Shown: positions 42,501 to 59,926 of the stretch, piece by piece
How the letters are laid out: the number at the start of each line of letters is the position of its first letter
Numbering within the stretch: position 1 is the stretch's first letter
Origin: Planctomycetota bacterium
GTDB lineage: Bacteria; Planctomycetota; PLA2; JAEUHO01
Direction: 5' to 3'
NCBI GenBank assembly: GCA_965222115.1
Contig: CBDCTJ010000003.1
Location: forward strand, 352,001-416,000
Length of the DNA: 64,000 nucleotides
Program-made: the position numbers and the translations under genes
The notes under the pieces: generated by a model
Databases searched by the model: none
What the model was told of the DNA's origin: nothing
The model's input: the letters and a program-made list of their open reading frames with translations, nothing else

Positions 42501-42965
42501 TGTCGAAGCCAATGCGTTGGCGGCTCGACGTGCCACGTACCAATGATCGTCACTCAGGAGCTCAATGAGACGCTCCACGGAGTCCGGCGTGTTCGAACGC
42601 AGGTGAGCAAGCGCGCCCGCTGCCTCGGCGCGCACCCAGGCAGAGTCGTCGTCGAGCGCCACTGCAAGACGATCGCGTACTTCGCGGCTTCGGAATGCGT
42701 CTTGGCCGAGGGCGGCGGCAGCGCAGGCGCGCGTTTCGGCGACGTCGCTTGCGAGATCGCCAAGGAGCTTGGCGGCATCCGCCGCGGAAACGTCCCGATT
42801 GGGCGTGGCGTTGGCGCCCATCAGGATTCCATCGCCGCCACGCGTGAGAAGGGCGATTCCAACGACGACGGCTAGCGCAAGCGCCGTCAGACCAAGAACG
42901 CGTGGTGGACTCATAGAACGGCTGCTGGCGTTTGCTCGCACGTCGGATTGTTGTGAGTGATGCAT
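39573..42965 (-). CDS. Large membrane-anchored HEAT-repeat protein
   Basis: N-terminal TM followed by many PBS-lyase/HEAT-like units (VRAEAAGAL, VARRAANAL, VRAAAAKKL, VRALSAAAL); start uncertain. Confidence 0.85.
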   Translation of the reverse strand: MHHSQQSDVRANASSRSMSPPRVLGLTALALAVVVGIALLTRGGDGILMGANATPNRDVSAADAAKLLGDLASDVAETRACAAAALGQDAFRSREVRDRLAVALDDDSAWVRAEAAGALAHLRSNTPDSVERLIELLSDDHWYVARRAANALASTPEQSLSGLRAAMDTATDKNRDGLATALRRMGSQAMPILSGVLTSDNESAVRVALRAMHDSQTDASSAFDAVTKIVERTASSDVRSDAVIAFGAMKQATARVLPKLDALIQQRETSYAAATAYKALGDAAKPSLPAMLRALRNERESNYTLHELIGSFGEDAVPGLRTLLRNRNQKTLEGVLRALRTMGRKGHHAIPDVIRLLDHRDPSFIMTVVNTLNELGPRSVAEILSVISPTSRIGTVRQAMRLLNFMGKKTVKGFALALERGSWMVRAAAAKKLVELGEDAIEAAPTLRRMLNSKDEYVRALSAAALVSMGRHVRDAIPQLVEGIRMRDGNVVRICVDAAARLRVSTPELVAALEDRMGRGSTKIGQSARTALISIGNPSQALVRQLIRDLSGKEGARAARTLARIGPVSAEVASALRRAIERGDASTAAASIRALSKMGPFDDATRRLITEKMADREPQVSGAAVDALAESMSADELLLFIGGNGPTHARVALAVRWARASKQPAPASLSTLVHSLFKSGKRKSVRQGLYVLDALGPRAVPCVLAAIASQEEALQDGGIFFFARAAPDLRDINIDRAWTSDELVAYRNEVSRDPLRNDARAMLLRRTKATEAPKRGMAALALAFFPRDATTIERLSSLVGDANGQVKAISMLALLPFNGAIDGVMPRVRTLTKERGLPGSIAKRIVALKDTSVQASDRKPKGKQPKQAVSVRDQIEQLAVAKKAGSFTANDVESLLDLLNHEGIRVGDAAASYLPDVLAAYPCLQPLISTVVVEGKPFKVGLALDGDLARVESWDTEDARRVVPLLENAQWGRRSAAIAIAAAAALSEARPVFLNLLKHEDAMVAENAAQALRRYRDLTQSDVEALIQALARPRLRRKVLDVLASLGSKAVSAVPEILSLLDAGRETDASLRALGTIGDDRLAVRRRILELYRRPEHRDAAIDAARKIASTSPAAQEVFSELLTAPSTRR

Positions 42966-43058
42966 GGTCTCTCCTGGGGGGCTACCCAAGAGAGCGGATT
43001 CGCGAAACGGTTGCTACGTAGCGGGGTGATTTTTGTGATCTGCGCTACGCTGCGGTCC

Positions 43059-43697
43059 ATGAATGGCGAAGGCACGGATCCTCACACGCGCTCAAGCAAC
43101 CAAGATTTGACACAAACACTGGCCTTGGTGAGAAGGGCGCAGGACGCCGACGCAATTGCTCGCGAGCAACTCTTCGTTCACATTCGACCCCGTCTGGAGG
43201 CGTGGATCGCGAGCCGCGTGGGGCCCCGCCTGCGAACGCGCCTCGATGTCGAGGATTTGTTCCAAGAGATCTGCATGAGCGCCCACACGGCCCTCGACAG
43301 CTTTTCGCCGGATGGCAATGAGGCCGCATTTTGGCGTTGGATAACGACCATTGCCCATAACCGCATCCGCGACGCGCACCGCTACCATGTGGGCGCCCAG
43401 AAACGCAGCGCAGAGGCCGAACAGCGGCTCGAACACCAGTTAACGAGTTCGTGGACGTCGCCGAGCTTGCGCGCCGTTCGTCGAGACCAACATGAACGTC
43501 TGTTGTTGGCCATTGCACGTCTCGATGAACCGCATCGCGACGTCTTGCGCGTCGTCGAGTTCGAACACCATAGCTACAAAGAGGCAGCGTCGATCTTGGG
43601 CATCTCGGCCTCCAATGTGAGTGCTCGTTTGACGCGCGCCCGCACAAAACTCGGCGAGTTGATACGCAAGTCGCCCGACGACTGGACGCGTGCATAG
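43059..43697 (+). CDS. ECF (sigma-70 family) RNA polymerase sigma factor
   Basis: Region 2 DVEDLFQE...FWRWITTIAHNRIRD; region 4 SYKEAASILGIS...VSARLTRAR; linker WTSPS. Confidence 0.93.
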   Translation: MNGEGTDPHTRSSNQDLTQTLALVRRAQDADAIAREQLFVHIRPRLEAWIASRVGPRLRTRLDVEDLFQEICMSAHTALDSFSPDGNEAAFWRWITTIAHNRIRDAHRYHVGAQKRSAEAEQRLEHQLTSSWTSPSLRAVRRDQHERLLLAIARLDEPHRDVLRVVEFEHHSYKEAASILGISASNVSARLTRARTKLGELIRKSPDDWTRA

Positions 43698-46240
43698 TGA
43701 CACTTGGCGATAGCGATCATGATGCCCCCGAGCGGATCCTTCATGAGTTCTTAGAGACTCACGGGCTCCGCGATGACGACGCGTGGCACGCGCTCTTGAC
43801 GTCGCATCCGCAACACGCCGATGCACTTAAGCAACTTGGCGATGCGCTGCGTGCCGCGGACGACGCGCTGGAGGGTTTGCGTGCTCCATTGAACACAGTG
43901 CGCGAGGATCCCGACGCGGCACTGCTCGATGCGTTCGCAGGCGATGTGCCGGACCACGCGGCCACATTCGAAGAGGTCGCGAGCATGACAAGGGAAGCGC
44001 ATCATGGGGTCGCATCCGGGCCCCATGCTTCGCACACATTGGAACGCTGCCCTCGATCCATGGAGGAGCGCGCGTTTCTCGAACAAACACGAACCATTGC
44101 ACGCCTGCAGCATCCGTCCATTGCGCCCGTCCACGATCTTGTGCGCGACGAGGACGGACGCCTTGCCCGTCTGAGATCCTTTCCGCCATCAACGTCTCTT
44201 CACGAGTTGCTGAAGGATTCGAAGAGGGAATTGCGCTTTGATCGACGGCGCCTCATCGAAATCCTGTCGAAATGCGCGCGTGTTCTCGCGTTTGCTCATG
44301 AACACGGAGTTGCACACGGTCATCTTGATACGGACAACATCGCCGCGGGCGCCGGTGGGGAACCCTACGTGTTGGGGTGGCAGAATGCCATCGCCCAAGG
44401 TGAACCCGATTATCCCGCTGCGGCGCGCGCAGATATGTCCGCAATTGGTACATTGATCCAAGCCGTAACTTCACGTTTCGGGACAAACGACGCACTGGAC
44501 GCCATTGCGGACGCGTGTGGCGACGGTACGACGTACGCGCGAGCCACGGGCATCGCGGATGACTTAGACGCGTATCGTGAACACCGTCCCCTCAAGGCCT
44601 CGCCCCCTACGGCATGGCGACGACTGGTTCTTACGGCACGACGACACCCGGCCATTGCTACAGCCGTAGGCGCCACGTTGCTTGCAGGTGCGGGTCTGCT
44701 GATGACTCATCTCATTGAGATGAGTCAGGAGATCAAGGCTGCGCAAATAGCTCAGCTGGCAGCACGGAATGAAACCGTGATCGCTGAAGAGAAATCTGAC
44801 TTGGCGCTTGCCCTTGCGCTTGAGCAAGAGGCGCCAACCCTATGGCCGCCGGATCCCGGTACGCTGCCAAAGTACAATGCATGGCTTGAAGACTGCGCAA
44901 GACTTGAGTCGCGTGTGCCCCTGCTACGTTCACGATTGAATCAAGCGCCCAAGGTGGCGACGCGGTCATTCGATACGAGCCAACCTCTACCCCGCACCCG
45001 TTCCATCCACCGCGCCGTACGCAGAATCTCAGTCTGCGAGAATGACATTCGCACGTTAACACTGACACTCAACGCGACGAAGGCGTCTACCGAAGACAAG
45101 CCGATTCGCAAGGCGATCGCGCACGAACTTGAGGAACGAAAGCAGAGGCGTGCAGAGTTGAAAAATGAGCTACGCGCCGCACAGATTCGCGCGCGCGTCG
45201 ATCGAGACGATCGATGGGCGCGTATTGCCTCCATCATCTACCGCATTGAACGTCTAACGCGTGGCGAGCGCTCCGCCAAACGGGTCATTGACGCCCGCCG
45301 CGACCTTGCTGAGAACGTTGCACGTCGCTATGAAAAACCAAGCGACGCATGGCGTCTTGCACAAGACCAGATTCGAGCCGACGCGCGATTCGGCATGTTG
45401 ATCGACGTCCAGCCCGACCTCGTTCCATTGGGCATGGATCGCGCGTCACGCCTCCAAGAATTCGCGTTCTTGCCATCGGGGTCGATTCCGCGGCGCGATG
45501 CAAATGGAGACCTACACTACAAAGACGATGCAGCAATCGTTTTCGTGCTGATTCCGGGCGGTACAACGTGGATTGGCGCACAGTCAGAGAACCCGAAGGG
45601 TAGGAATTACGATCCACAGGCAGTTCCTAACGAAGGGCCGCCTCATGAAGCGCCCATCGATCCCATCTTTATCGCCAAGCATGAGTGTACGGCCGCGCAA
45701 TGGAATCGGCTTCGCTCGCGCTGCCTCCCCATCGACGAAGAGCGCGAGATAGAGAAGACGATCGGTGAGGCTGCGCCGCGAGAGCCCCGTCGAAATCGCG
45801 AGCACACCGCAGTCAAAGAGATGTTGTCGCGCTACGCACTCCGAATGCCCTACGAGTGGGAGTGGGAGCATGCGGCCCGCGCGGGTGGAACGGGTCTCTG
45901 GCCCTGGCCCGGCGACGCCACGCACGCGCCGAGATACACGCAAGTCGGTAGCGGCGCCGTCTTGGCCGAAGTGGGACTGTATGCGCCAAATGGTTTCGGA
46001 CTCCACGATTTGGGAGGCAACGCTGCGGAGCTGATGGAAGGCTATGGGGGAGCATACGAATCGATCTTCTTCGTACGCCGATGGATATCGAACACACGCA
46101 CAGTTCGTGGTCGGTACCTCGGTCGGCCCATTGAGCACGCCCGCGTCACGCATCGCTGGGATGTGCCAATCACATTCTCTTCACCGTGGCTGGGGTTTCG
46201 ACCCGCGCGACCCGTGTATCGGCTGAAGAAGTACCCGTGA
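43697..46240 (+). CDS. Pseudokinase + TM + coiled coil + FGE-sulfatase-fold receptor
   Basis: Kinase remnants (FLEQTRTIARLQHPSIAPVHD, LAFAHEHGVAHGHLDTDNI, YVLGW) without catalytic motifs; TM; FGE-fold RMPYEWEWEHAARAG, PNGFGLHDLGGN, LGFRPAR; GTG overlaps the sigma TAG. Confidence 0.8.
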   Translation: MTLGDSDHDAPERILHEFLETHGLRDDDAWHALLTSHPQHADALKQLGDALRAADDALEGLRAPLNTVREDPDAALLDAFAGDVPDHAATFEEVASMTREAHHGVASGPHASHTLERCPRSMEERAFLEQTRTIARLQHPSIAPVHDLVRDEDGRLARLRSFPPSTSLHELLKDSKRELRFDRRRLIEILSKCARVLAFAHEHGVAHGHLDTDNIAAGAGGEPYVLGWQNAIAQGEPDYPAAARADMSAIGTLIQAVTSRFGTNDALDAIADACGDGTTYARATGIADDLDAYREHRPLKASPPTAWRRLVLTARRHPAIATAVGATLLAGAGLLMTHLIEMSQEIKAAQIAQLAARNETVIAEEKSDLALALALEQEAPTLWPPDPGTLPKYNAWLEDCARLESRVPLLRSRLNQAPKVATRSFDTSQPLPRTRSIHRAVRRISVCENDIRTLTLTLNATKASTEDKPIRKAIAHELEERKQRRAELKNELRAAQIRARVDRDDRWARIASIIYRIERLTRGERSAKRVIDARRDLAENVARRYEKPSDAWRLAQDQIRADARFGMLIDVQPDLVPLGMDRASRLQEFAFLPSGSIPRRDANGDLHYKDDAAIVFVLIPGGTTWIGAQSENPKGRNYDPQAVPNEGPPHEAPIDPIFIAKHECTAAQWNRLRSRCLPIDEEREIEKTIGEAAPREPRRNREHTAVKEMLSRYALRMPYEWEWEHAARAGGTGLWPWPGDATHAPRYTQVGSGAVLAEVGLYAPNGFGLHDLGGNAAELMEGYGGAYESIFFVRRWISNTRTVRGRYLGRPIEHARVTHRWDVPITFSSPWLGFRPARPVYRLKKYP

Positions 46241-48867
46241 GGCGTCCGTCGATGTCGCAGGAATCAGTACTCAGATATCGCTTCGTCGAACCACTCGGCC
46301 GTGGCGGCATGGGCGTTGTAGTGAAGTCGTGGGATCGCTACTTGGATCGAGCGGTTGCCGTGAAACTGCTGCGCGCTCGACCGGGAGCCACTCCCGTCGA
46401 TGACGAGTGCATTGCTCGATTTTCGCGTGAATCTAGTATCGGAGCGTCGTTGTCGCATGGCGGCATTGTGCCCATCTACGAGGTCGGAACCACAGAGAGC
46501 GGCACGCGGTTCTTTACGATGCCCGTGATCCAGGGTGACGAACTCAAAGCCCTCATTCGCCGCGCCCATGAGCCGCCTCGTACGCCACGTCAACGCAGAC
46601 GAGTGATTCAGCACATTGTGGAGGCGTGTGACATCGTTCACTACGCACACACGCAAGGAGTCATTCACCGCGATCTCAAGCCTTCCAACATCATGGTGGA
46701 TGAGGTCGGTCGCGTCTATGTCGTAGATTGGGGAGTAGCGAGGGGATTGGGAGAGCCGGAGGAGCAGGCAAGCCCCGTTGAACGCGCTTCGCACGAGCGA
46801 TCGACCGAAACGCTTGTTACCGAAGATGGATGCGCCCTTGGAACACCCTCCTACATGCCTCCCGAGCAAGCACTCGGCGAATCCGTGACGCCCCAAGCCG
46901 ACGTCTACGCGCTGGGCGCCGTGCTGTATCACGCCCTGACCAACCGAATGCCCTATCGAGATCCAACGCGACCAACGACGCAAGGCGAGATTCTGGGCAA
47001 ACTGATCAAAGGGCCGCCAACCGACATATGGGAACTTGCGCCGGACACGCCAAAGGCATTGGTTCAAATCGTCGAATTGGCTATGGCGCGTGAGCCGACC
47101 GGTCGCTACGGCAGTGCCGCGGCCATGGCCGGAGACTTGCGAGCGTACTTGGAAGGGCTTCCCGTTGCTGCGGCACGACCCTCGATTTGGCGCCGAACGA
47201 AGCTCATGGCTCGTCGGCATCGTACGGTCGCAGGCGCAGTCATGGGCGGGGCGATAGTACTCGGGCTTCTCTGGCTGGTGCTTGGCACTGTGCTTGACAA
47301 CGCGCAACGTCGGTCAGCCACTGCACAGGTTCGGCTGGCACGGGCAATCGACAGAGAGAAAGAATCGGCGATTCTGTCAAGCGCCAACGCACTCCGCGCG
47401 AGTTTAGACGAGTGTATCCCACTCTCGAAGGTGCACCTCACGGCATTGCGTGAACTCAAGGACAGGGCCAAAGCGGTCAACGAACGTAGAAGACCCTATG
47501 CGGAAGAACTCGAAACCCTCAAGGCAACGTCGCTCCCGCTCGATGCCGCGCAACGGAATTGGCACAATCGCGCGGACGTTGAAGACGCTCGCTTGGAGTC
47601 AATGTACGTGTCCTGGGTTCGGACGGAATATGACAAGATGCACGAAGAGGGAGTGATCGACCCCCGCATTGAGGAACTATTCTCAAAGACTCCTATTGAG
47701 CGATACGAGGAGGGCGTTGTCGCTCGGGCAGCCGACCTGAAAGCGAAACGCAGCGTATGGCGCTATGCTTTACCGCGTGACGGAGTGAGGCATCGCCAGC
47801 TTGAAGGGGCCCTCCGTCCCGACATAAGCAAAATCATGGCGGATATCCAACTGAGCATTGCTCGAATTAATGAACGAAAACGCGCAATGCCGGAGACCTC
47901 AACAAGCCGTTGGCGAACATGCCGGGCGAGCATTCGTAGCAACACTCGATATCGTGGTATCGAAATCCCCATACAAGAGAGTCTTTTCCCTTTAGGCGCC
48001 GATCCAAGCTCAGGATTGCATGAATTCGTGGATGTTTCGACAGGCAGTGTTCCGAAGCGGAACGAAGAGGGATCGCTGGTTCTTGAAGACGATACGGGGA
48101 TTGTGTTCGTCTTGGTCCCCGGCGCCGCGCGTACTGACGTTGGCGTATCGCGCCAAATCTGGGAAAGCAAGCTGGGCTCAGTCTCCCACGTAGGCCCGTT
48201 GCGTCCTGTCGCCATCGAGCCCTTCTTTCTTGCCAAGGGTGAGTGCACGATAGCTCAGTGGGAACGAATGGGTGGAGAGCTTGGCATGCGTTGGGAAGAG
48301 ATGCAGGAACCTCGCTGTGGGACCAATATCACAAAGCGATTCCCCATGTGCCATGTCTCATTCAATGGCATACAGCGCGCCTTGGAAACGTTTGGCATGC
48401 GTTTGCCCACGGCACACGAGTGGGAATATGCCGCGCGAGCGGGCATGCAGTCCCTCTACCCGGGTGGAGAATCGCATCATGCATTGAAGGGCGCCGCCAA
48501 TGTCGCGGACCAGTCCTTTGCAGAATGCCACAAGGAGGAGTCCAATCGAATCAGCGAGTCGCTCGCTAACTGGAATGACGGGTACGGCGCCGAGTCGCCC
48601 GGTGGGTCGTTTCTTCCAAATGCGTTCGGCCTACACGACATGATTGGGAACGTCGAGGAGTGGGCGTCTGCTGAATGCACATTGTTTACATGGCCAAGTG
48701 GGTCCACGGATTGGTCTACGCTTCCGAAATCGTGGGGCGTTGTCCGAGGCTCAAGTTGGTACTATCCGCCTAATCATGGGTATTTCGCAGCCCAGCGCAT
48801 CGAGCCCCCAAACACCTACCTCATGCAACTCGGCTTCCGCGCTGCGCGCAGCATTGACTGGAAGTAG
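46237..48867 (+). CDS. Ser/Thr protein kinase + TM + FGE-sulfatase-fold receptor
   Basis: LGRGGMGVV, VAVK, HRDLKPSN, DWG, GTPSYMPPEQ, DVYALG; TM; RLPTAHEWEYAARAG, PNAFGLHDMIGNVEEW, LGFRAAR; GTGA overlap at 46237 (alternative ATG 46252). Confidence 0.92.
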   Translation: MRRPSMSQESVLRYRFVEPLGRGGMGVVVKSWDRYLDRAVAVKLLRARPGATPVDDECIARFSRESSIGASLSHGGIVPIYEVGTTESGTRFFTMPVIQGDELKALIRRAHEPPRTPRQRRRVIQHIVEACDIVHYAHTQGVIHRDLKPSNIMVDEVGRVYVVDWGVARGLGEPEEQASPVERASHERSTETLVTEDGCALGTPSYMPPEQALGESVTPQADVYALGAVLYHALTNRMPYRDPTRPTTQGEILGKLIKGPPTDIWELAPDTPKALVQIVELAMAREPTGRYGSAAAMAGDLRAYLEGLPVAAARPSIWRRTKLMARRHRTVAGAVMGGAIVLGLLWLVLGTVLDNAQRRSATAQVRLARAIDREKESAILSSANALRASLDECIPLSKVHLTALRELKDRAKAVNERRRPYAEELETLKATSLPLDAAQRNWHNRADVEDARLESMYVSWVRTEYDKMHEEGVIDPRIEELFSKTPIERYEEGVVARAADLKAKRSVWRYALPRDGVRHRQLEGALRPDISKIMADIQLSIARINERKRAMPETSTSRWRTCRASIRSNTRYRGIEIPIQESLFPLGADPSSGLHEFVDVSTGSVPKRNEEGSLVLEDDTGIVFVLVPGAARTDVGVSRQIWESKLGSVSHVGPLRPVAIEPFFLAKGECTIAQWERMGGELGMRWEEMQEPRCGTNITKRFPMCHVSFNGIQRALETFGMRLPTAHEWEYAARAGMQSLYPGGESHHALKGAANVADQSFAECHKEESNRISESLANWNDGYGAESPGGSFLPNAFGLHDMIGNVEEWASAECTLFTWPSGSTDWSTLPKSWGVVRGSSWYYPPNHGYFAAQRIEPPNTYLMQLGFRAARSIDWK

Positions 48868-48873
48868 CGATGG

Positions 48874-49416
48874 CTATGTGCCTTTCGTTTTCGCATCATC
48901 GGACTTTAGGATGTCCAACACGTCAGAGAGTGAGCGCTTGGAGTCAAAGAACTCGGGAATGAAGCGGCGCACTGCCGATGCCTGTCCCTCACTCATTGAT
49001 TCGCGAGCAATCTTCAGAACCAACTCGTTCGCCTTGTGGAGTGCCTTGTAGCGCCGCGATCGAATCTGCGCCAATCGAAGTTCGCCGTACATGCGCGTTT
49101 GGCCCATCACCATGCGATCCGTATTGCGCCGCATGAAGCCAAAGCCGCCAAGTCCCGGAATGATGTTCTCAATGCGATAGGGACTATGGACCGCCGCCAT
49201 GGCGCTCCTTGTTTCGTCGATAACGGCCCGCATGGCCCGTTCGGCACTGTCGGCTTCTGCGAAATGGGCTTTCACCCGTTCGTCTTCGGCCGCCTCGTCG
49301 ATCGCGGTCTGAGCAAGTGCGACAGCTTCGGCACGCGTAGAAGGCGCATCGCCGCAGCCCTGTGCCACGAACGTGACACCGGTGAGCAACACCAGGGAAA
49401 TGAATCGTTGAACCAT
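48874..49416 (-). CDS. Hypothetical helical lipoprotein
   Basis: Signal with lipobox-like VAQGC; RBS GGAGGA. Confidence 0.65.
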   Translation of the reverse strand: MVQRFISLVLLTGVTFVAQGCGDAPSTRAEAVALAQTAIDEAAEDERVKAHFAEADSAERAMRAVIDETRSAMAAVHSPYRIENIIPGLGGFGFMRRNTDRMVMGQTRMYGELRLAQIRSRRYKALHKANELVLKIARESMSEGQASAVRRFIPEFFDSKRSLSDVLDILKSDDAKTKGT

Positions 49417-49472
49417 GATCTGTCCTCCGCTTCCTTGAGCGGATTCGGCCGTCCGTTGCTACAAGAATTCTC

Positions 49473-49514
49473 GGGCATCTTCGTCCCGGGTTTGGGCATC
49501 TTCGCCCCGGGTTA
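49473..49514. repeat. 21-bp tandem duplication
   Basis: gggcatcttcgtcccgggttt / gggcatcttcgccccgggtta, between the two lipoprotein genes. Confidence 0.75.
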
Positions 49515-49952
49515 GTTGGGGCGCAGCCCTCCAGGGGAGGCCAACCGAGCCAGAATTGCGTTGATCTCTCGTCGGCGCGCTGCGTTATTCGTAATCGCCG
49601 GTCGAAATGCATCCACCATCGCGGTCACGCCCGTGCGTTCATTGAGTTTCATCAGTTCTGCGGCGGGCGGGTCGAGTTGATCGAGCAAATGCAGCAGATC
49701 ATTCAAGACGGGCCTGAGCGTGGCAGGATCGACGACGCCGCGTCGCGCCAGCTCGTAGTAGTCGTCCTGCCTCTTGTAAAACGACTTCCCCAGCTTGGCG
49801 TAGACCTCGGACACACGCTCAATCTCGGCTTTCAATGCAAGTGCTTCTGCTTCCGTCTTGGGCGGACCGACTGGCACGTCGGACGACTTGGAGCAGGACG
49901 CAATCACCAAGAGTGCAAGTAGAGTCGCGATTGGCAAGCCGTTGCGTATCAC
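49512..49952 (-). CDS. Hypothetical helical lipoprotein
   Basis: GTG start overlapping the CHAT gene TGA; lipobox-like VIASC. Confidence 0.65.
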   Translation of the reverse strand: MIRNGLPIATLLALLVIASCSKSSDVPVGPPKTEAEALALKAEIERVSEVYAKLGKSFYKRQDDYYELARRGVVDPATLRPVLNDLLHLLDQLDPPAAELMKLNERTGVTAMVDAFRPAITNNAARRREINAILARLASPGGLRPN

Positions 49953-52738
49953 TTTGTTTCCCCCGTATTCGTTTCGCCGGGGTGCGGAACACCCCAAACC
50001 TGCCAACCGGCCCAATGATCCGGATCGCGAAATGCGGCACTTGATGCAAGCTCCTGCTTCGCACGTCGCAGCGCCTGCATAAGCGGTTCACCCGCCCCTT
50101 GCTTCGGATTCCATCGGCGATAAAACGCCGTCATGAACGCTTGCGTCGCTTGGTCGTCTACCGGCCAAAGGCTCGCAATGACAGCGCGTGCACCGGCCGA
50201 CAAGAAGCCGCGAGCGAGGGACAGGCTTCCTTCGGAGCGTGACAGTTGCCCGATTCCACTCTGACACGCCGAGAGCACGACGAGGTCGGTCCGAATGGGA
50301 ATCCGTTCAATCTCCTCCATCGTCAATCGCCCGTCGTCATGCCCGCTCGGCGAGAGTCGCAGCGCCGAACGCTGCGGTACGTAGTCATCGAGGTCGCCAT
50401 GGGCGGCGATGTGAATCGCACGCCATCCTGGTTTCTCACTCGCCGCACGTCGGTAGGCCTCCTCCGTTGCACTCGCTCGCACATGGACCTTGGTTCCGAT
50501 GGCGCGGGCTTCGTCGCCCGACGCACGCAGTCTCGCCAAAGACGTGTCGGCGCTGTAGTCCGGGTCGGCGAGGGCAACAACGCGCCTGCCGCCGACGCGC
50601 TTTCGCGCGAGCAGTTCTTGGAGTATGGCGAACGACGGAACGATCGAGACCGTTCGACGACCCAAGTACTCCGCAATCGGCATATGCGCGGTCACCCCTG
50701 TCGTAGATACATAGATATGGGTCGTGACGGGGTCAAGGGCAAGAGCGGCATCGAAACGCGTGCGGTAGGTGTCTCTCAATACGTTCCATGCATTCGGATG
50801 CTCTTGCTCGGCAAACGCCCTCTGCGCCGCATTGAGTTTCTCCACGGCGCCCAGGGTCACCAGACGCGCGTGTTTCCCGCTTACAACGAGTGCCAGCACG
50901 GTGTCGTCAAATACGTGGATGGACATCCACGCGCGATGGGCGGGGAGCAATCGACGGGCCTCGCGGAGGCGTTTCACACGGGGCTTGAATGTCCGCCCGC
51001 CGCGCAACGCGCTGCGCCTCACCGCCACGGCCTCGTGTAACGCCTGTCTCGCGGCTTCGACCTCCGGCATCGCATTCGACTCAAACGCTTGAAGCAGACG
51101 CCGACGCGCACGTCGAATCGCCGCGTCATGCTTGTAACGAGCATGTGCATCCCCGTGTGATTCATGTGCAGGGACGCGGTGATGGCGTGCCAGGGAATTG
51201 AGCAGCACACGTGCACGGCCTTCTTCGGCAAAACGAAAGAACGCGTCGGCATTCTTTGATGCGAACGCAGCGCGCATGCCTAAGTCCAATACGCTCTGAT
51301 CGCTGTCCCGTACGCGAATGACGTCCAGCGGCGCGAGATCGTTTGAACGATCATCGAGATACGGCACGGCTTCGTGCACAGATGCGATGGCGCCGGCATG
51401 GTCGCCTTGACTCAACTGCGCCGTTGCACGGCCACGTAGCGCAGCCACAATCATGCGCGGATTGTGCAGCTCGGTTGCAAGGGCGTGCGCACGCGTTAGA
51501 GACTGAATCGATGCGCGATGATCGTCCTTCGCGTGCTGTGCACCCGCCAGGGTGAGCAGGGCGACGAGTTCGTCCATCCGCAGCCGGAGCTTCCGTGATC
51601 GTGCCAAGTTCTCCGTTGCCAGTTGAGCCGCCAAATCAAACCGGTCCGATTTGAGCATGAGATCGGCCACATTCCCACGGACGACCATCTCCTGTTCGAC
51701 GTCGTTGATGGCCTGGGCGCGCGCTGCAATGGACGTTAGGCGTGAAACGAGCTCGTCACTCTTGTTGCCGTCCGCAATGTCAATATTCGCGAGATCCAGA
51801 TCGATCGCGAGAAGCTCCGAGGGCGCGCTTGCCCCGACGAGCTCCCGTTTCGCCACCATAACGTAGCTTCGCGCCTGCGACAGGTCTCGTAGTCGCCACG
51901 CAAGAACGCCAAGTTCCCGCACCGATTGTGCCGCGTGGAGCACGAATCCATGCTGGCGTTGAATCTCACGGGCACGCAGGAGACGCCGTTTTGCCCGACC
52001 ATAGTCACCCGACGTGATGTCGAGACGACCAAGTGCCGCCAGCGTATTGGCATACCCACGGGGGTCGCCGTGCTCACTGCGCATGGACAGGGATTCACCA
52101 AAGTGTTTGCGCGCCCTGGCAATATCTCCTTGCTGTGCATGCAACATGCCGAGATTTTGGTGCGCCTTCATGACGCCGGGGCGCATAAACGCTTCTCCAT
52201 AACTCTTGGCAGCGGCAGGCGCCCTTTCGAGTACGCGCTTCATCGAAGCAATCGCCTTTCGATCTTCGCCTAAGAGGTCGTAGGCCAGGCCTCGATTGAG
52301 TTCGAGCATGAGCAGCGCACGCCCGTGATCTACATTTTGAAACAAGCGCTCCGCCTCGGCATAAAGCGAAAATGTTTGCTCACGCAGCCGTAGGCGAGAC
52401 GCGACGTTTGCCGCGGACATGAGCGCGATCGCACGCGCCTGATCGTCCTTACGCTCCGCATGAATCTCAGCTTCACGTTGAAAATGGTTGAGCGAACACT
52501 CAAATCGCCCCAGATTTACACACGATCGTGCCTTCGCAGCGTGCATCGCCGCCGACTCATCTAACTCGCCGCGTTTGTAAAGCGCTTCGGCAATATCTAC
52601 ATCCTCGACCACCTGCTTTGCAGGATTCCGTGCCTCGTCTTCGGAAGCGCCACCTTGTGCGCGACTCTGCCACCATCCGAACACCAGAAGCGAAACGATT
52701 CCTGCAGTAAGTGCTAGTGCGCTGCGCTTGTTCATCAT
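49949..52738 (-). CDS. TPR + CHAT (caspase/HetF-like) protease with N-terminal signal/TM
   Basis: Start MMNKRSALALTAGIVSLLVFGWW after GGAG; TPR-like helices (AHQNLGMLH, ANTLAALG); CHAT dyad IHIAAHG and LVVLSACQSG; SLARGFLSAGA, ASLWPVDD, FMTAFY, HWAGW. Confidence 0.92.
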   Translation of the reverse strand: MMNKRSALALTAGIVSLLVFGWWQSRAQGGASEDEARNPAKQVVEDVDIAEALYKRGELDESAAMHAAKARSCVNLGRFECSLNHFQREAEIHAERKDDQARAIALMSAANVASRLRLREQTFSLYAEAERLFQNVDHGRALLMLELNRGLAYDLLGEDRKAIASMKRVLERAPAAAKSYGEAFMRPGVMKAHQNLGMLHAQQGDIARARKHFGESLSMRSEHGDPRGYANTLAALGRLDITSGDYGRAKRRLLRAREIQRQHGFVLHAAQSVRELGVLAWRLRDLSQARSYVMVAKRELVGASAPSELLAIDLDLANIDIADGNKSDELVSRLTSIAARAQAINDVEQEMVVRGNVADLMLKSDRFDLAAQLATENLARSRKLRLRMDELVALLTLAGAQHAKDDHRASIQSLTRAHALATELHNPRMIVAALRGRATAQLSQGDHAGAIASVHEAVPYLDDRSNDLAPLDVIRVRDSDQSVLDLGMRAAFASKNADAFFRFAEEGRARVLLNSLARHHRVPAHESHGDAHARYKHDAAIRRARRRLLQAFESNAMPEVEAARQALHEAVAVRRSALRGGRTFKPRVKRLREARRLLPAHRAWMSIHVFDDTVLALVVSGKHARLVTLGAVEKLNAAQRAFAEQEHPNAWNVLRDTYRTRFDAALALDPVTTHIYVSTTGVTAHMPIAEYLGRRTVSIVPSFAILQELLARKRVGGRRVVALADPDYSADTSLARLRASGDEARAIGTKVHVRASATEEAYRRAASEKPGWRAIHIAAHGDLDDYVPQRSALRLSPSGHDDGRLTMEEIERIPIRTDLVVLSACQSGIGQLSRSEGSLSLARGFLSAGARAVIASLWPVDDQATQAFMTAFYRRWNPKQGAGEPLMQALRRAKQELASSAAFRDPDHWAGWQVWGVPHPGETNTGETK

Positions 52739-52760
52739 GGACTCCGTTCGTGTTGGATTT

Positions 52761-54818
52761 TCAATTGGCGTGTTTCGTGGTCGTCGGCAGCGGCAAACCA
52801 AGCGCGCGCCGTGCCGCTTCGAGAACGGCCCGGCCCAACCGTCCGACCCTCGGCACGTGCCGCAGCGTTTCGAGCGCCGCGGTGTAGCGCCCTTGCGTGT
52901 ACAGAACGAATGCACGCCTTTCCTCGGGAAGTGCTTGTGTGGCGCGATCGACGATGGCGAGCGAAGCCGACGTCTGCTTCGGGTCGGCATCGGTCATGAC
53001 CGTAAAGGTGGCTCGACCCGCTTCTTCGCCCTCCATGTCCAACACATTCCACGTATAAGTTTGGCCTGGACGAAGCCGACCACGAATGTCTTCGGGAATC
53101 ACGATCCGCTGTGTGGCCGCGTCCGTCGCCTTGATGATCCGCTGAAAACTACTCCCATATACATCCATTGCAACGGTCCCATAGGTACCGGGTGGCATGG
53201 CAACCGTTAGCGCCACCACATCGTTCTTTGTCACGTTGCCGCGGGGAAGCCATGCGACGGGAGATGCGCGACTGCGTACGACGCGATGATGCGCTCTTGC
53301 CGACGCACGTACAAGTGCAACCATTTCGCGAACGAGCTCCGGTGCGTCCTCGCGCAACTGCTCCGCCGGCGCCAATTGGACTTCATCGCCACTGCGAATG
53401 CGGCACCGTTGGCTCCACGAATGAAAGTACGGTGATTCCCAACGAACTTCGTGTGAGCCGGGCGAGAGCTTGTGTCCGCGTAGCGGCGCCCCGCCACACG
53501 CCACACCATCGACATAGACTTCGCCCCCACCCAACGTCTCGGGAACCACGTGCAGCGTTCCACGGCGAAACGTGGTCCACCAAACGGTTCCTAGGCCCAA
53601 CATCGCGACCACGACGGCGGACGCAACCCAATGACGTTTCGCGAAACGCGCGGCTTTGGCGAAACGTCTGGACGGCATTCGGATTTCACGTCCCTGTGCC
53701 ACTTTCCGCAGGTCGTCAGCCAGCGCGCGCGCGTCGGCATAGCGATCCCGGGGATCTACTTCCAAAGCGCGGTGAATGACCTGAGCAATTGCGGGGGCAA
53801 TCGTCGGCGTAACGGACGCTAGTGGAGCGATCGATCCCCGCGTGACACACGTTCGCACGTCTGCTAAAGATTCGGCGGCGCCATGAATACGCTGGCCGCT
53901 CAGCGTCTCGTACATCACCGCGCCAAGGCCGTAGATGTCGGAGCGCCCATCCAGCCGTTTCGGATCACCACGCCATTGCTCGGGACTCATGTAGGAGGGA
54001 CTTCCGAGCATGTCGCCGTGCTGCGTGAGTGACGTGCCGAGTTCGGTCTTCGCAAGATCAAAGTCGGTGAGGACCAATCGACCCTTGGCGTCCAAGATCA
54101 AGTTGGAGGGCTTGACATCGCGGTGCACGATTCCCACGTGGTGATAGGCCGCGAGGGCTTCCGCCACGCCGACAAACGCCATGGCGATGCGCCGCGAAAA
54201 TCGATGGGCGCCGCGTCCCACGCCGGGAATACCGAGTCGATCCAGTACATGGTCGCGTTCGACACCGGAGGAGATTTCCTCTGCGTGAAGCTGACCAATG
54301 GCGTCGCTCCAGGTGGGGCCGCGCAAGAGCCCCATCACGATGTAGGGTCGGTCTGACGTGTTGGCAATGCCGTGATCAAAAATACGCGCCGCATGATCAT
54401 GTTCGACTTGAGCTGCGGCGGCCGCCCCCGCTTCAAACCGCTGCCGCGCCTCTGTGTTGCTCAGCCGTTGATGCAAGACCTTGAGCGCCACTTCACGAGA
54501 CAGGCCCACTTGCCACGCTCGAAACACATCGCCATACGATCCAGAACCCAAGTAGGCGAGGGTGCGATAGCCCTCCACGACAACGCCCACACCACCCTCG
54601 TCGAGTGACTTGTCTTGCACAACCGGGCGCTCGCTGAGGGTCTCATCCAACACGCGCGTAAACTGGGCGAATGCTCCTCCCGCTTGATCGCGATAGTCAT
54701 TCACGTCGGGCTCCTCCCCATGCAATGCGCGCAGAAAATAATCGGCAACAAGCATGGAAACGGTCGGGTCCATCTCGTCTTCTTGTGTATGGATGTGATG
54801 TCGCTCGTGGGGCATCAT
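52761..54818 (-). CDS. Receptor Ser/Thr kinase with TM, PEGA domain and DUF928-like C-terminus (start may be 54773)
   Basis: LGSGSYGDV, VALK, HRDVKPSN, TDFDLA, GSPSYMSPEQ, DIYGLG; TM; PEGA-like GGEVYVDG...LSPGSHEV; LRPGQTYTWNV...RAFVLYTQGRYTAALETL. Confidence 0.88.
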   Translation of the reverse strand: MMPHERHHIHTQEDEMDPTVSMLVADYFLRALHGEEPDVNDYRDQAGGAFAQFTRVLDETLSERPVVQDKSLDEGGVGVVVEGYRTLAYLGSGSYGDVFRAWQVGLSREVALKVLHQRLSNTEARQRFEAGAAAAAQVEHDHAARIFDHGIANTSDRPYIVMGLLRGPTWSDAIGQLHAEEISSGVERDHVLDRLGIPGVGRGAHRFSRRIAMAFVGVAEALAAYHHVGIVHRDVKPSNLILDAKGRLVLTDFDLAKTELGTSLTQHGDMLGSPSYMSPEQWRGDPKRLDGRSDIYGLGAVMYETLSGQRIHGAAESLADVRTCVTRGSIAPLASVTPTIAPAIAQVIHRALEVDPRDRYADARALADDLRKVAQGREIRMPSRRFAKAARFAKRHWVASAVVVAMLGLGTVWWTTFRRGTLHVVPETLGGGEVYVDGVACGGAPLRGHKLSPGSHEVRWESPYFHSWSQRCRIRSGDEVQLAPAEQLREDAPELVREMVALVRASARAHHRVVRSRASPVAWLPRGNVTKNDVVALTVAMPPGTYGTVAMDVYGSSFQRIIKATDAATQRIVIPEDIRGRLRPGQTYTWNVLDMEGEEAGRATFTVMTDADPKQTSASLAIVDRATQALPEERRAFVLYTQGRYTAALETLRHVPRVGRLGRAVLEAARRALGLPLPTTTKHAN

Positions 54819-54835
54819 GGGGACCGAACCCGAGC

Positions 54836-55849
54836 CTACAGATCGTCCATGAACCGCCTCGCGGCGTGGAGTTGGTTGAGTGGGTTCGCTGACGCAGGCG
54901 CTTTGTCGTGCACACGGAACTCATGCGTGAACCGTCGCGAGGCAAGCGCCATGAACCCATAGAGCCACATGGCCATGAAAATGAAGTGGACGATGTGATT
55001 CGGCCCTGGCAGCGTCAGCCAGAGCATCCAGTCAAACGCCAATGCGCCGCAGAGCGCCGCCATGGCCGCCCGTGCCCACGGAACGCCCATACGCAGCGAT
55101 GCACCCCCTATGATGAGTAATACATCTTCCACAGCTTCCATCGTCCAACCGGGAAGGGCGGGGATCACATTCAAGTGTTCGGGAACACCAACGAGCGATA
55201 CGAAGAACGAAGGTATATAGGCCGAGGACGCAGCAACGGCGGCAACAAGCATGAGATGAAGTACGCCCGTCACGATGAGACACTTCCCAAGCGTTGCAAT
55301 GGGATCGGAGATCGTTCCTTGAATGGGCATGGCCGGACGAGGAACAACGACCGCGTGGCCAAGTAGCTTGCGCGCCCCGATCACGATTGCCCACACCACG
55401 AGTGGCAACGGTGCAAACAGCATGAGTGCGTCGAGATTGCTTTGATGAGTAAACAGTCGTTCGGTGATCAGCGCGATGACGCCACCCAGCGCGACAGTTA
55501 GATAGCCCGCAGTTGACTGTGGATTGCGTAACACCATGACCGCGCCAGCCAAGAGCGCAGAACCTGCGAACAGGTAATCCGTCGGTCCCCAAACGATGAA
55601 CCAGTCAAGGAGTACGTAGCCGAATGCCGCCGCCCACCAACTCATCAGAAGTCGACCCTGACGGAGGCCGCGTCCCAGATCGAGCCATGAACCGGGTACG
55701 GCGTACTGCTTGGCCTCCACGTCGATCACAACCGGCTCGTCTTCATGCGTGGCGGCCGCATTAGGCCCCTCGATTGGCAACTCGGGGATCGGCGCGTCAG
55801 TAACAGGTGCGTCAGCGGATCGAATCGCTACAGGCGTCGAATCGTGCAC
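54836..55849 (-). CDS. Hypothetical multi-pass membrane protein
   Basis: About 8 hydrophobic segments; RBS GGAGG; ends 17 bp before the kinase ORF. Confidence 0.65.
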   Translation of the reverse strand: MHDSTPVAIRSADAPVTDAPIPELPIEGPNAAATHEDEPVVIDVEAKQYAVPGSWLDLGRGLRQGRLLMSWWAAAFGYVLLDWFIVWGPTDYLFAGSALLAGAVMVLRNPQSTAGYLTVALGGVIALITERLFTHQSNLDALMLFAPLPLVVWAIVIGARKLLGHAVVVPRPAMPIQGTISDPIATLGKCLIVTGVLHLMLVAAVAASSAYIPSFFVSLVGVPEHLNVIPALPGWTMEAVEDVLLIIGGASLRMGVPWARAAMAALCGALAFDWMLWLTLPGPNHIVHFIFMAMWLYGFMALASRRFTHEFRVHDKAPASANPLNQLHAARRFMDDL

Positions 55850-57019: not shown

Positions 57020-58645
57020 CTACGGATGGTGAAACGCTCGAACAACCAGTTCCCGAATCGGCTCCAGCCCCACAATCCTAATGCCTCTATTTCCCGGCCT
57101 AGCAGACGCATAGCCCCGGAGATCCAACCGAGGCGTCGTCCTTGAGAACAGCGTCTCGACGCGCGCCCGCTCGTCCAGTTCCAACTCACGTGGCGCTGAC
57201 AGGGGCGCTTCCTGATACAGGCGTTCGAGGAGCAGCCAGGCAACTTGCCTCGGTGGAACGACCAATTGGCCTTCGATGCCTACGTATCCACCCCACGATC
57301 GGAAGAATCCGGGCCCCACAACCCGAACCCGGTCGTTGAGCCCATCGGGCCCGGCGTGAACGCGAACTATATGCAGTTCCCTGCTTGGTGCATCAGCGCC
57401 AAGACGCAGCACAACGGCATCCACGCGTGCAGCGGGCACGGAGGGCGCCAAGAACCAAAGAGCAATCACCGTCGCCAGCGACGCCACACAGGTCATGACG
57501 AATCGAGATCGTACGGTTCGCGCCGCGCGTTGAAGCCCGAACAATGCCAAGACGTACAGCGCCACCAATGCTAGCGATCGTCCATGCCGACCGCGTGTAA
57601 GAGACCACGCGCCCCAAGCATCCGTTGCGGGCGAGATACGAGGTGCACGATGGAACACGGTGGACAGGCGGGGAAGCCACGCGCGTTGATCGGCAAGTTT
57701 CGCCCCCGCGTCTGCTGCGCTTGTGGCTGTGAGTACATGGCCGAGTGTGCCGTCAGGCAATTCGCGAACGCGTTCACCGAGCAACGGTGGGTGCCGCTCC
57801 TCATCCAACATCATGACCGCGCCCCCCACGCGAACGAATTCCACCACGACACGAGACCAACGCTTGCCTCGCACGTCATCGAGCCATGCATCGGGACCGC
57901 AGAACACGACATCCACGGGCGCGATGTCCCATACGCGCTCAAGTTTTCCTCCGGTCGCGCGCAACACATCGTCTGCGCGCACGATTGTCAACTCGGTTGA
58001 GGCTTCCGGTGGTGCGATCGATGTCGATAGCCACAAAACAACCGGTCGCGGACCTGGGTGTGTTCCCCGTTCTGCAGCAAGCCATATCGGGCCTTCGGTG
58101 AACCCACGGTTTGACTGAAAACCCAATTGGGAAACGCGCGTGGCACCGCCCTCGCGCAGTCCCTCGTGCTGCGCACCGGGAGGCAACTCGCTCAACGTGC
58201 GTTCGTAGCGTTCGGTCGGTGACCGCTTCGCGAATGCGCGCCACCACTCGCTCGCGCCTCGCGACGTCACCGCCGCAACCGTTGCAAGGGAGAGCGCCAC
58301 GACAAGCGAACTGGCGGCGAGACGTCGGCGTGGTTTCGACACAATGGACAGCAGGCATGCGCCGGACAAGCACAACCACCATGCCCAGCCCGGCAGGGGG
58401 AGGAACCGAATGCGACCCTCACCGGTAAACACCAGCGCCGCGACGATCGGCAGCGCCGCCAGGAGCATCAACACGATGTCCGACGTCTTATGGATCCCGA
58501 AAAAGACGGCCCACACGATGAGCCCAACCAACAAAACGCGCCATGGCACCCACACGTCGGCCATGGACCACGACGAGCAAGCCGCGGGAATCAACAGCGC
58601 AACGACAAACAGCGAAGCAACAGCAACAGCGGTGCGCGTGTGCAT
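57020..58645 (-). CDS. Hypothetical membrane protein
   Basis: About 5 N-terminal TMs, soluble domain (EFVRVGGAVMM), two more TMs and a C-terminal domain; start uncertain. Confidence 0.55.
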   Translation of the reverse strand: MHTRTAVAVASLFVVALLIPAACSSWSMADVWVPWRVLLVGLIVWAVFFGIHKTSDIVLMLLAALPIVAALVFTGEGRIRFLPLPGWAWWLCLSGACLLSIVSKPRRRLAASSLVVALSLATVAAVTSRGASEWWRAFAKRSPTERYERTLSELPPGAQHEGLREGGATRVSQLGFQSNRGFTEGPIWLAAERGTHPGPRPVVLWLSTSIAPPEASTELTIVRADDVLRATGGKLERVWDIAPVDVVFCGPDAWLDDVRGKRWSRVVVEFVRVGGAVMMLDEERHPPLLGERVRELPDGTLGHVLTATSAADAGAKLADQRAWLPRLSTVFHRAPRISPATDAWGAWSLTRGRHGRSLALVALYVLALFGLQRAARTVRSRFVMTCVASLATVIALWFLAPSVPAARVDAVVLRLGADAPSRELHIVRVHAGPDGLNDRVRVVGPGFFRSWGGYVGIEGQLVVPPRQVAWLLLERLYQEAPLSAPRELELDERARVETLFSRTTPRLDLRGYASARPGNRGIRIVGLEPIRELVVRAFHHP

Positions 58646-58791
58646 GAAAACGATGGCCCCATTCGTCCTATTGAAAGACCGTCGTCGGATTGAAAGACGG
58701 TCTTCCGATTGAAGGACAGTAGCCCGCGCGAGCCTACAACACGACCGCATGGACCTGAGGTTTCAACGCAAGACCGTGGCCTTCGTTCGAT

Positions 58792-59769
58792 TTATCTCCA
58801 GGATGGCGTGGAGCGGTACGCATCCATGAGCGGTTCGTCGCGCACATCCAAGTAACCGCCGGGAAGGGGTTGCGTGAGAAGGCGACGCAGGCGATGGAGC
58901 TTTGTTCGCGTATCGTCTTCACCTTGGACGCGAGACCGCGCGCGATCGGTGCGGCCCCACTCCACCGTTCGCACTACGCGCTTTCCGCCGCGGCGCTCGG
59001 GAGGACAGATAATGCGCAAGCGCACCTCGCCATCATGGCGCTGCGAAACGCTCGCGGGAAAGCGTGATACGTCGATGGCGTGCACCGTTACACGACCGGC
59101 AAAGAGCTCATATACCATCTTCGCAATGCGCGTGGCGGCCACGGCTTCGGCAACCTGCTCGTGGCGGTCCTCCCACACCTTCCCGACGGCGGGCAACGGG
59201 CGCGCCCGAATCCCCGTCACGTAGGGAATTGGATACCCCACGTGCTCGACAAAGCGTTGATACGGTTCGGCGGGTAGCAGGCAACCGTCATCACTTAGGT
59301 AACGCTCGAGTACAGCGGGCTTCCCGTCCCGAGTCGTTGTGGGAAAGCGAACGCGAGCTACGGGAACTCGAAAGGAAACGCGCGCATCGGCAAAGCGCGG
59401 ATAACGAATGCGCACTTCATCAACTTGTCGAACCAGCGGATGCTGCAACAAGTGAGACTTCACAATGGCTTCCGCGTCGTTGTCATACACCGACACCTTG
59501 AAACGCGAGAACTGATCCGGGTGCTCGGAGTGAAACGCATCCGACGAAAGCCACGCTGGAATATTGACGACCTTTACGCGACTCGGTGCCACTTGATAGC
59601 CCTGCAGCCCATAGCTGTAGGCGCGCGCCTCTTTCATGACGAGGCTAACCCCCAGCAAGACCCCGGAAGCCAGCAGCGCACGTATCAATACATGGCCACG
59701 AGGCGAACGTACAAGGTCGAGGAATCGTGCACCCAGTCCGTCATCGTTAGTGGTGGTACCGCGCGCCAT
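58792..59769 (-). CDS. FtsQ/DivIB-like protein (TM + POTRA-like domain)
   Basis: Single TM then LLQHPLVRQVDEVRIRYP...SFRVPVARV, LSDDGCLLP, IPYVTGI, VEWG, YLDVR. Confidence 0.65.
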   Translation of the reverse strand: MARGTTTNDDGLGARFLDLVRSPRGHVLIRALLASGVLLGVSLVMKEARAYSYGLQGYQVAPSRVKVVNIPAWLSSDAFHSEHPDQFSRFKVSVYDNDAEAIVKSHLLQHPLVRQVDEVRIRYPRFADARVSFRVPVARVRFPTTTRDGKPAVLERYLSDDGCLLPAEPYQRFVEHVGYPIPYVTGIRARPLPAVGKVWEDRHEQVAEAVAATRIAKMVYELFAGRVTVHAIDVSRFPASVSQRHDGEVRLRIICPPERRGGKRVVRTVEWGRTDRARSRVQGEDDTRTKLHRLRRLLTQPLPGGYLDVRDEPLMDAYRSTPSWR

Positions 59770-59926
59770 AAGAAGGGAAACTCCTGCGGGGGGGGCGCCG
59801 AAACTCGGCACACCACCGCAGGTCACGGGATCGGCTGTTCATGACCCGTGCTTCAATCGCGGAGAGCCCGTTCGGTCTTCGTTCGCACATCGAACACGCG
59901 TAGGGTCAACACCGATGCGGACCGCT

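Follow-up and report, generated by a model that had tools for sequence, protein, structure and literature searches.

A 64,000-nucleotide stretch of DNA from a Planctomycetota bacterium (contig CBDCTJ010000003.1, positions 352,001 to 416,000; hereafter the window) contains five minus-strand genes, at window positions 48874..55849, in which a caspase-like protease of the TPR-CHAT type is encoded beside a single-pass Ser/Thr kinase receptor. Judged by gene neighborhoods in related genomes, the conserved unit is the putatively exported TPR-CHAT protein plus the ectodomain of the kinase, and it is smaller than the five-gene operon of the original prediction, an earlier reading of this DNA. The interpretation that we favor, at a probability of about 0.5, is a split periplasmic relay resembling DdvA of Myxococcus xanthus, in which the CHAT protein would act as the site-1 protease on an Arg-containing loop of the receptor.

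Linkage of CHAT genes with the receptor ectodomain

For identification of related loci, GTDB genomes were scanned using a 13-sequence alignment. Of 208 pattern matches, 161 were confirmed and the best 80 were kept, corresponding to 74 loci (two of them overlapping) from about 28 assemblies, as counted by accession prefix; 72 of the 74 are from Planctomycetota. All 74 loci were picked by their CHAT gene, and the frequency of the ectodomain is therefore read from the CHAT side. A profile of the ectodomain matched in 12 of these loci, from 10 assemblies, and the window kinase was still recovered (E 1e-7) when the window sequence was left out of the profile. Eleven of the 12 ectodomain genes lay no more than 1 kb from the CHAT open reading frame (ORF), compared with 160 of 603 other predicted genes (P ~4e-6, with relatedness ignored).

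The ectodomain was carried by four kinases (L008, L026, L035, and L065), five lipoprotein-type PEGA proteins (L023, L036, L041, L046, and L061), two zf-HC2 anti-sigma factors (L024 and L039), and one fragment. As in the window, the kinase gene is immediately upstream of the CHAT gene in L008, L026, and L035; in L065 it is downstream. A sigma factor gene directly precedes the carrier in L008, L026, L024, and L039, and none was found adjoining the kinase in the window or in L065. Four further kinases of the same build, without gene context, came from the profile search.

The remaining genes of the window locus encode two predicted lipoproteins and a multi-pass membrane protein. No relative of these three was found among the 4765 ORFs of the 74 loci (for lipoprotein 1 and the membrane protein, no database-wide search was made), nor did any of them match a Pfam, NCBIfam, or PADLOC family. 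A conserved five-gene operon was rejected on the absence of such relatives from all 74 loci. Of the linkage that the original prediction had expected to be conserved, that with the ectodomain recurs (12 of 74), and that with the other three genes does not (0 of 74). The latter are best explained as local additions, with the membrane protein probably a neighbor outside the conserved unit.

Outside Planctomycetota, 16 plasmid CHAT loci were picked from 72 records. In four of the 16, the ectodomain profile matched secreted proteins in CHASE2/CHAT clusters (E 3e-11, 5e-9, 2e-7, and 3e-3); all four proteins are cyanobacterial, and two have sub-threshold DUF928 scores. A fifth plasmid locus has the order CHASE2-DUF928-CHAT. 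A plasmid tblastn search with the ectodomain of a relative gave no match. Plasmids of Acidobacteriota and Bacteroidota (L075:3232-8083, L079:3393-7660, and L086:5304-11250) were also seen to carry CHAT together with two further genes, one sigma-like and one for an anti-sigma-like membrane protein; the anti-sigma-like proteins have Arg-Gly or Arg-Ser after the transmembrane (TM) helix and are unmatched by the ectodomain profile. On a Sphingobium plasmid (L088:6526-12363), TPR-CHAT, a CHASE2-adenylate cyclase, and a secreted 238-residue protein with Arg-Gly before a beta-rich region are encoded together. This arrangement resembles the mtxA cluster plus CHAT; the likeness of the 238-residue protein to MtxA is one of appearance and is not claimed.

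The TPR-CHAT protease and its family

Pfam analysis of the 929-residue protein identified TPRs and a CHAT domain (PF12770, residues 681–915, E 7e-46, 157 bits against a cut-off of 24), with the catalytic dyad at His780/Cys825 intact, as the original prediction had stated. A PDB sequence search with the protein returned TPR matches only. The N terminus, earlier left as either a signal peptide or a TM segment, combines a basic tip, a hydrophobic core that is short (13-residue hydropathy 2.51, with no 19-residue window attaining 1.6), and an A-x-A-like end; it looks like a cleavable signal peptide rather than a membrane anchor. A hydropathy rule of the same kind assigned a signal-peptide-like start to 59 of the 65 CHAT ORFs that are complete and distinct, compared with 34% of internal starts sampled alike, and on this ground export would be a trait of the whole CHAT family. 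Together, hydropathy and the family-wide pattern suggest that the TPR-CHAT protein is exported to the extracytoplasmic side.

The catalytic Cys, which was absent from the scan pattern, matches a strict pattern in 57 of the 65 complete CHATs; one has Leu. In an 83-row CHAT alignment, from which several loci rows including the Leu-bearing one are omitted, every row has Cys825 and an acidic residue at the position of Glu743, a possible Arg-binding residue. A variable loop within CHAT just before Glu743 contains Arg-Gly/Ser/Ala in 56 of the 83 and is shortened in the window copy (residues 726–743, 50510-50563); it is possibly a self-cleavage or pseudo-substrate loop.

Single assemblies hold many paralogues (up to about ten among the loci kept), which marks the family as expanded. 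In L004 and L010, which are on one contig, and in L008, L023, and L025, two to four exported TPR-CHAT genes stand in tandem. On a CHAT tree built with FastTree, pairing with the ectodomain is scattered (12 rows, 10 changes, at least four of them forced), and partnered CHATs are not clustered beyond shuffles (62 of 500 as low).

The receptor and its MtxA-like ectodomain

From the N terminus, the receptor consists of a short helical part, the kinase domain, a TM helix, PEGA, the Arg loop, and an MtxA-like immunoglobulin (Ig) plus TPR domain. By the positive-inside rule, the kinase would be inside and the ectodomain outside. The kinase retains the Gly loop, the beta3 Lys (K98), HRD (217–219), N224, and the Mg-binding D237. 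The kinases of L008 and L026 start with an anti-sigma-like zinc finger, and those of the window, P0232, and L065 with a different short helical segment. In L008:4206-6335 and L026:3480-5684, the anti-sigma-like zinc finger and the kinase are thus parts of one receptor encoded directly behind a sigma gene.

In a model of the ectodomain from an 18-row alignment (predicted local distance difference test (pLDDT) 83), PEGA is followed by a helix, then a disordered loop, then an Ig sandwich and finally TPR-like helices; folding from the single sequence gave no usable model (pLDDT 41). The top Foldseek match was the C-terminal domain of MtxA (4z29, E 2e-6), which was also the top VIA-align match (Z 11.2, root-mean-square deviation 3.7, 155 residues; the next best, at 9.9, covered PEGA only). 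The MtxA C-terminal fold is the best structural match for the modeled Ig plus TPR part. In the ESM Atlas, an MtxA-bearing cluster scored 0.94 (MtxA families on 14–15% of its members) and a DUF928 cluster 0.85. Comparison by hhalign with a cyanobacterial alignment including one DUF928 member gave a probability of 94 (E 1e-7); the ectodomain resembles DUF928-like proteins, with the link running indirectly via cyanobacterial proteins. Alignment A5 excludes a 2OG-Fe dioxygenase and the Sphingobium protein.

Sequence identity to MtxA is 16–20%, and the Pfam MtxA and DUF928 (PF06051) models matched none of 12 copies (the window and 11 planctomycete relatives). PDB sequence searches with three queries, the profile of the ectodomain, that of the cyanobacterial proteins, and the Sphingobium neighbor, gave no significant match, and a direct homologue search with the ectodomain found only itself. 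A search of cluster representatives was dominated by PEGA repeats, with one of the 150 listed matches (P0164) spanning the whole ectodomain.

A conserved Arg loop as candidate cleavage site

The loop between PEGA and the Ig domain was compared in the 17 of 18 alignment rows that cover a conserved Pro at the Ig-domain start. Arg is present at exactly −13 from this Pro in 13 of the 17 and at −14 to −12 in 16, compared with 28% of background windows, and Arg-Gly/Ser/Ala occurs inside −14 to −8 in 14 of the 17, compared with 17% of background. The window loop contains Arg497 (at −13), Arg500 followed by Ser, and Arg502 followed by Ala, and is disordered in the model (pLDDT <50 at model residues 94–100). 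For comparison, the CHAT protease HetF cleaves PatU3 at R117|S118 (PMC9457339; papers are cited here and below from excerpts, except where a main text is named), and separases cut after Arg (PMC11506125). Residues 494–503 are a candidate CHAT cut site, with Arg500/Ser and Arg497 as the best positions; as an alignment feature, the motif is firm in the planctomycete set only.

Co-folding of CHAT residues 110–920 with the ectodomain gave a score of 0.43, compared with 0.01 for the best of three controls; runs shared at least 52% of contacts, with a partner pLDDT of at least 75. Among solved complexes, 116 of 157 attained the mark in calibration, as did 2 of the 215 mismatches. At scores up to 0.60, only 18 of the 157 solved complexes attain it, together with both mismatches, and for this reason the multimer modeling that the original prediction had proposed lends weak support to CHAT–ectodomain binding.

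Proposed relay and alternatives

In the DdvA-like relay, the exported TPR-CHAT protein would become active only once a signal is bound by its TPR array, as other TPR-CHAT proteases suggest. It would then dock onto the MtxA-like Ig plus TPR domain of the neighboring kinase, as the co-folding weakly indicates, and would cut after Arg in the exposed PEGA–Ig loop, with Arg500|Ser and Arg497 as the likeliest sites. Without its cap, the receptor could change state, with the kinase activated or de-repressed or a site-2 cut licensed; in the anti-sigma carriers, the CHAT cut would be the site-1 step. The original prediction had CHAT cleaving or binding either the kinase ectodomain or the lipoproteins to trigger phosphorylation. 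The ectodomain half of this gains from conserved linkage, the candidate Arg loop, and co-folding, and the lipoprotein half is set back by the lack of relatives in the 74 loci.

As for the output, a kinase receptor is present as claimed, but phosphorylation need not be its result, because the same ectodomain is found on anti-sigma factors and lipoproteins and because the window kinase deviates at two conserved positions. The usual output in relatives is probably transcription driven by a sigma factor of the extracytoplasmic function (ECF) class, since their ectodomain is found on zf-HC2 anti-sigmas, some of which include a kinase, encoded after an ECF sigma gene.

Several observations weigh against the relay. 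No ectodomain gene was found in 62 of the 74 CHAT loci in the available DNA (some contigs being short), and most CHAT family members are without a partner. Conservation of the His in the loci is circular, as the scan pattern included it. The branch of the window CHAT is long, and the Pro726–Glu743 loop in this protein has 18 residues compared with a median of 29. The window kinase has Gly116 in place of the alphaC Glu, which 7 of 7 aligned relatives keep, and DFD (Asp239) in place of DFG, which 8 of 8 relatives keep; by these residues it may be weak or dead. Some DFD kinases, such as Mnk, are active. Close kinship within L026/P0233/P0234, L035/P0235, and L041/L061 makes the 17 loop sequences non-independent, the −13 Arg of the window precedes Val, and P1′ is Thr or Met in three relatives. 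Five cyanobacterial partners keep a linker Arg, but at no fixed position and with no consistent small P1′. CHAT specificity varies, with craspases cutting after Met or Leu, and autoproteolysis of DdvA itself is unproven (PMC11506125).

The first alternative, which we consider unlikely, is binding without cutting. TPR-CHAT would be a soluble co-receptor, the Arg loop would dock or hold the protease inactive in a securin-like manner, and the signal would pass by kinase clustering or release. Gene linkage and the weak co-folding result fit binding equally, P1′ is not always small, and the lipoprotein-type ectodomain carriers are without a cytoplasmic part, which fits an anchor or inhibitor. In addition, dyad mutants of DdvA had no phenotype at rest (PMC11506125). 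Cutting is favored over mere binding by retention of the catalytic Cys, a residue not used in the scan pattern, in at least 57 of the 65 complete CHATs and by the position of the Arg, which is in a disordered loop between domains, as scissile sites typically are.

It is also rather unlikely that the CHAT protein is a stand-alone exported protease (for defense, predation, or envelope remodeling) of a lineage-wide expansion, with the kinase a co-regulated neighbor and the window pair perhaps decaying. Such a protease would account for the 62 loci without a partner, for up to four tandem CHAT genes (L004/L010), for the deviations of the window kinase at alphaC and DFG, and for the long branch and short loop of the window CHAT. 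It would leave unexplained the adjacency of the ectodomain far over background, on three carrier types and in two phyla, and the conserved Arg within a variable loop; moreover, all reading frames in the window are intact and tightly spaced.

A role for the two lipoproteins as the true CHAT partners, whether as substrates, activating ligands, or inhibitors (PCi-like or immunity-like), is improbable given 0 relatives in 74 CHAT loci, no family match, and, for lipoprotein 2, a best ESM Atlas match of 0.82, which is within chance, although fast-evolving partners could escape such searches, the lipoprotein 1 gene and the stop codon of CHAT overlap, and PCi, encoded next to PCaspase, inhibits it (10.1101/2023.06.23.546230). 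The GTGA overlap couples lipoprotein 1 translationally to the CHAT gene, and both lipoprotein genes have a GC content by codon position like that of their neighbors. A lipobox-like Cys was seen by eye at C20 and C23, respectively. A 10-residue motif just past the lipid Cys is common to the two proteins (pairwise E 0.008) and did not occur elsewhere in the window or in any of 90 loci, which also speaks for a partner role; the two are possibly diverged paralogues.

A wider form of the cleavage relay can be put forward as a tentative possibility. Portable MtxA/DUF928-type modules with an Arg loop, cut by many paralogous exported TPR-CHAT sensors that each act on one such loop, would be phylum-spanning protease-activated receptors, and the cut would be read out by an attached or encoded Ser/Thr kinase, zinc anti-sigma, or CHASE2 receptor. 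Equally conjectural is that the cut acts by shedding or through a new N terminus serving as a tethered or released ligand. Protease-activated receptors of animals are the analogy here.

Comparison with known systems

The locus would work like a split DdvA and like HetF–PatU3 and is a member of neither the DdvA, the Craspase, nor the SAVED-CHAT systems. We know of no substrate for the large class of exported TPR-CHAT proteins. The window locus puts forward candidates for both a substrate and its scissile Arg, along with a domain (MtxA/DUF928-like, with no function assigned to date) that recurs beside CHAT. If the relay is true, it would be a modular extracytoplasmic caspase relay including a bacterial protease-switched receptor kinase; its wider form would give a function to MtxA-fold and DUF928-like proteins and would place caspase-type signaling outside the cytoplasm.

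An extracytoplasmic TPR-CHAT is already known from DdvA. In the DdvA–DdvS system, a periplasmic TPR-CHAT with a His-Cys dyad is proposed to make the site-1 cut in a juxtamembrane linker, removal of the periplasmic cap licenses RseP cleavage, and an ECF sigma is freed (PMC11506125). DdvA has a zinc-finger anti-sigma domain, as do the relatives L024, L039, L008, and L026. Its protease is inside the receptor chain, whereas the window CHAT is a separate, predicted exported protein and the receptor is a kinase with a PEGA plus MtxA-like ectodomain; no zf-HC2 was found in the window CHAT protein, which is not a DdvA-type single chain of zinc anti-sigma, TM, and TPR-CHAT. HetF of Anabaena PCC 7120 is likewise a CHAT protease with one cognate substrate, PatU3, and an Arg|Ser cut, but a TM helix parts its CHAT from periplasmic TPRs and its substrate is no receptor (PMC9457339); in the window protein, TPR and CHAT would both be on the outer side.

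In Magnetospirillum, MtxA is an exported protein whose gene precedes that of a CHASE2 cyclase; deletion of the gene gave no phenotype, and trypsin cleaves the protein immediately ahead of the Ig domain (PMC4439547). MtxA and DUF928 proteins share with the window ectodomain the Ig plus TPR-like fold and export, and their genes are beside those of CHASE2 receptors; in the window, the MtxA-like domain is fused to a kinase. The excerpted text of one report places DUF928 beside CHASE2, without CHAT (PMC5587647). In open-access literature searches, no link between MtxA and CHAT was found in print and no description of the CHAT–ectodomain pairing; among the papers listed, judged by title and start of abstract, TPR-CHAT appeared in CRISPR systems, DdvA, cell death reviews, and corals.

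In Craspase (Csx29-Csx30-CASP-sigma) and SAVED-CHAT/PCaspase/PCk/PC-sigma, a ligand-activated CHAT has a sigma factor encoded with it, joined in Haliangium by a Ser/Thr kinase that is a proposed substrate (bioRxiv 2023.06.23.546230); these systems differ in being cytoplasmic and CRISPR-triggered. Identity with Craspase was rejected: the Csx29 model scored 29.4 bits against a cut-off of 300, and no Cas family was found in the scanned window ORFs. Planctomycetota have gene pairs of ECF sigma and Ser/Thr kinase, and CHAT genes are found near ECF sigma genes, but ECF54 is actinobacterial and accompanied by subtilases (PMC7826278), and the window kinase has no adjoining sigma. The excerpted ECF classification contains no ectodomain, export, or cleavage model and mentions CHAT only for actinobacterial ECF54, in its supplement (PMC7826278). 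By term search, CHAT and PEGA are absent from the main text of a paper on planctomycete kinases (PMC11032199).

Locus layout and neighboring genes

The five genes (Table 1) are located immediately downstream of rplM-rpsI, and GC content is flat over the region. The intergenic gaps of 17 bp and 22 bp, the GTGA overlap, and the gap of 95 bp agree with the original prediction. The 17-bp gap requires the first kinase ATG (54818, 685 residues); the database protein begins at 54773 (670 residues), which makes the gap 62 bp. No promoter-like site was found in a scan of the locus, and terminator-like sites numbered 11, compared with 7.6 ± 3.1 in shuffles. Two 20-nucleotide direct repeats, 95% identical with a spacing of 21, were noted in the 95-bp gap between the lipoprotein genes (49473-49513).

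Table 1. Coordinates of the genes and domains of the CHAT–kinase locus in the window
Feature	Position	Strand	Basis or remark
337-residue multi-pass membrane protein, at least four hydrophobic segments	54836..55849	-	152 bp downstream of rpsI
Single-pass Ser/Thr kinase receptor, 670 residues (alternative start 54818)	52761..54773	-	Pfam, hydropathy, model
Kinase domain, residues 69–350	53724..54569	-	Pfam
Transmembrane helix, residues ~383–401, after basic stretch	53571..53627	-	
PEGA domain, residues 416–467	53373..53528	-	Pfam, E 6e-8
Low-confidence loop, residues 494–503, candidate CHAT cleavage site	53265..53294	-	pLDDT, Arg conservation
MtxA-like Ig + TPR-like ectodomain, residues 504–662, DUF928-like kin	52788..53264	-	Foldseek, VIA, ESM Atlas, hhalign
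Putative exported TPR-CHAT protease, 929 residues; signal-peptide-like residues 1–27, TPR array, CHAT	49949..52738	-	
Predicted lipoprotein 1, 146 residues, Cys20	49512..49952	-	GTGA overlap with CHAT gene
Predicted lipoprotein 2, 180 residues, Cys23	48874..49416	-	

No Cas, CBASS, or CRISPR family was recognized among the scanned window ORFs (selected, at least 150 residues), and PADLOC matches in the window were generic kinase and CHAT only. Convergent on the locus, at 42957-48867 on the plus strand, are an ECF sigma gene and genes for two kinase-TM-FGE-sulfatase proteins; the first of these kinases (43697-46240) is degenerate, with a Pkinase score of 19 bits, under the cut-off. A tie of the locus to these genes was rejected, as they are on the opposite strand and the sigma is unmatched by the partner-sigma profile. 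A third FGE protein is encoded at 4879-7113. For two sigma factors of the window, the best match was a Planctomycetaceae model, under its cut-off; together with the origin of the CHAT relatives, this points to a planctomycete as the probable host. A 1138-residue HEAT-repeat protein adjoining yebC is encoded at 39573-42989 on the minus strand. Two membrane proteins with no family above cut-off are encoded upstream of rplM, at 57020-59826 on the minus strand; the one of 344 residues is, by eye, presumably FtsQ-like.

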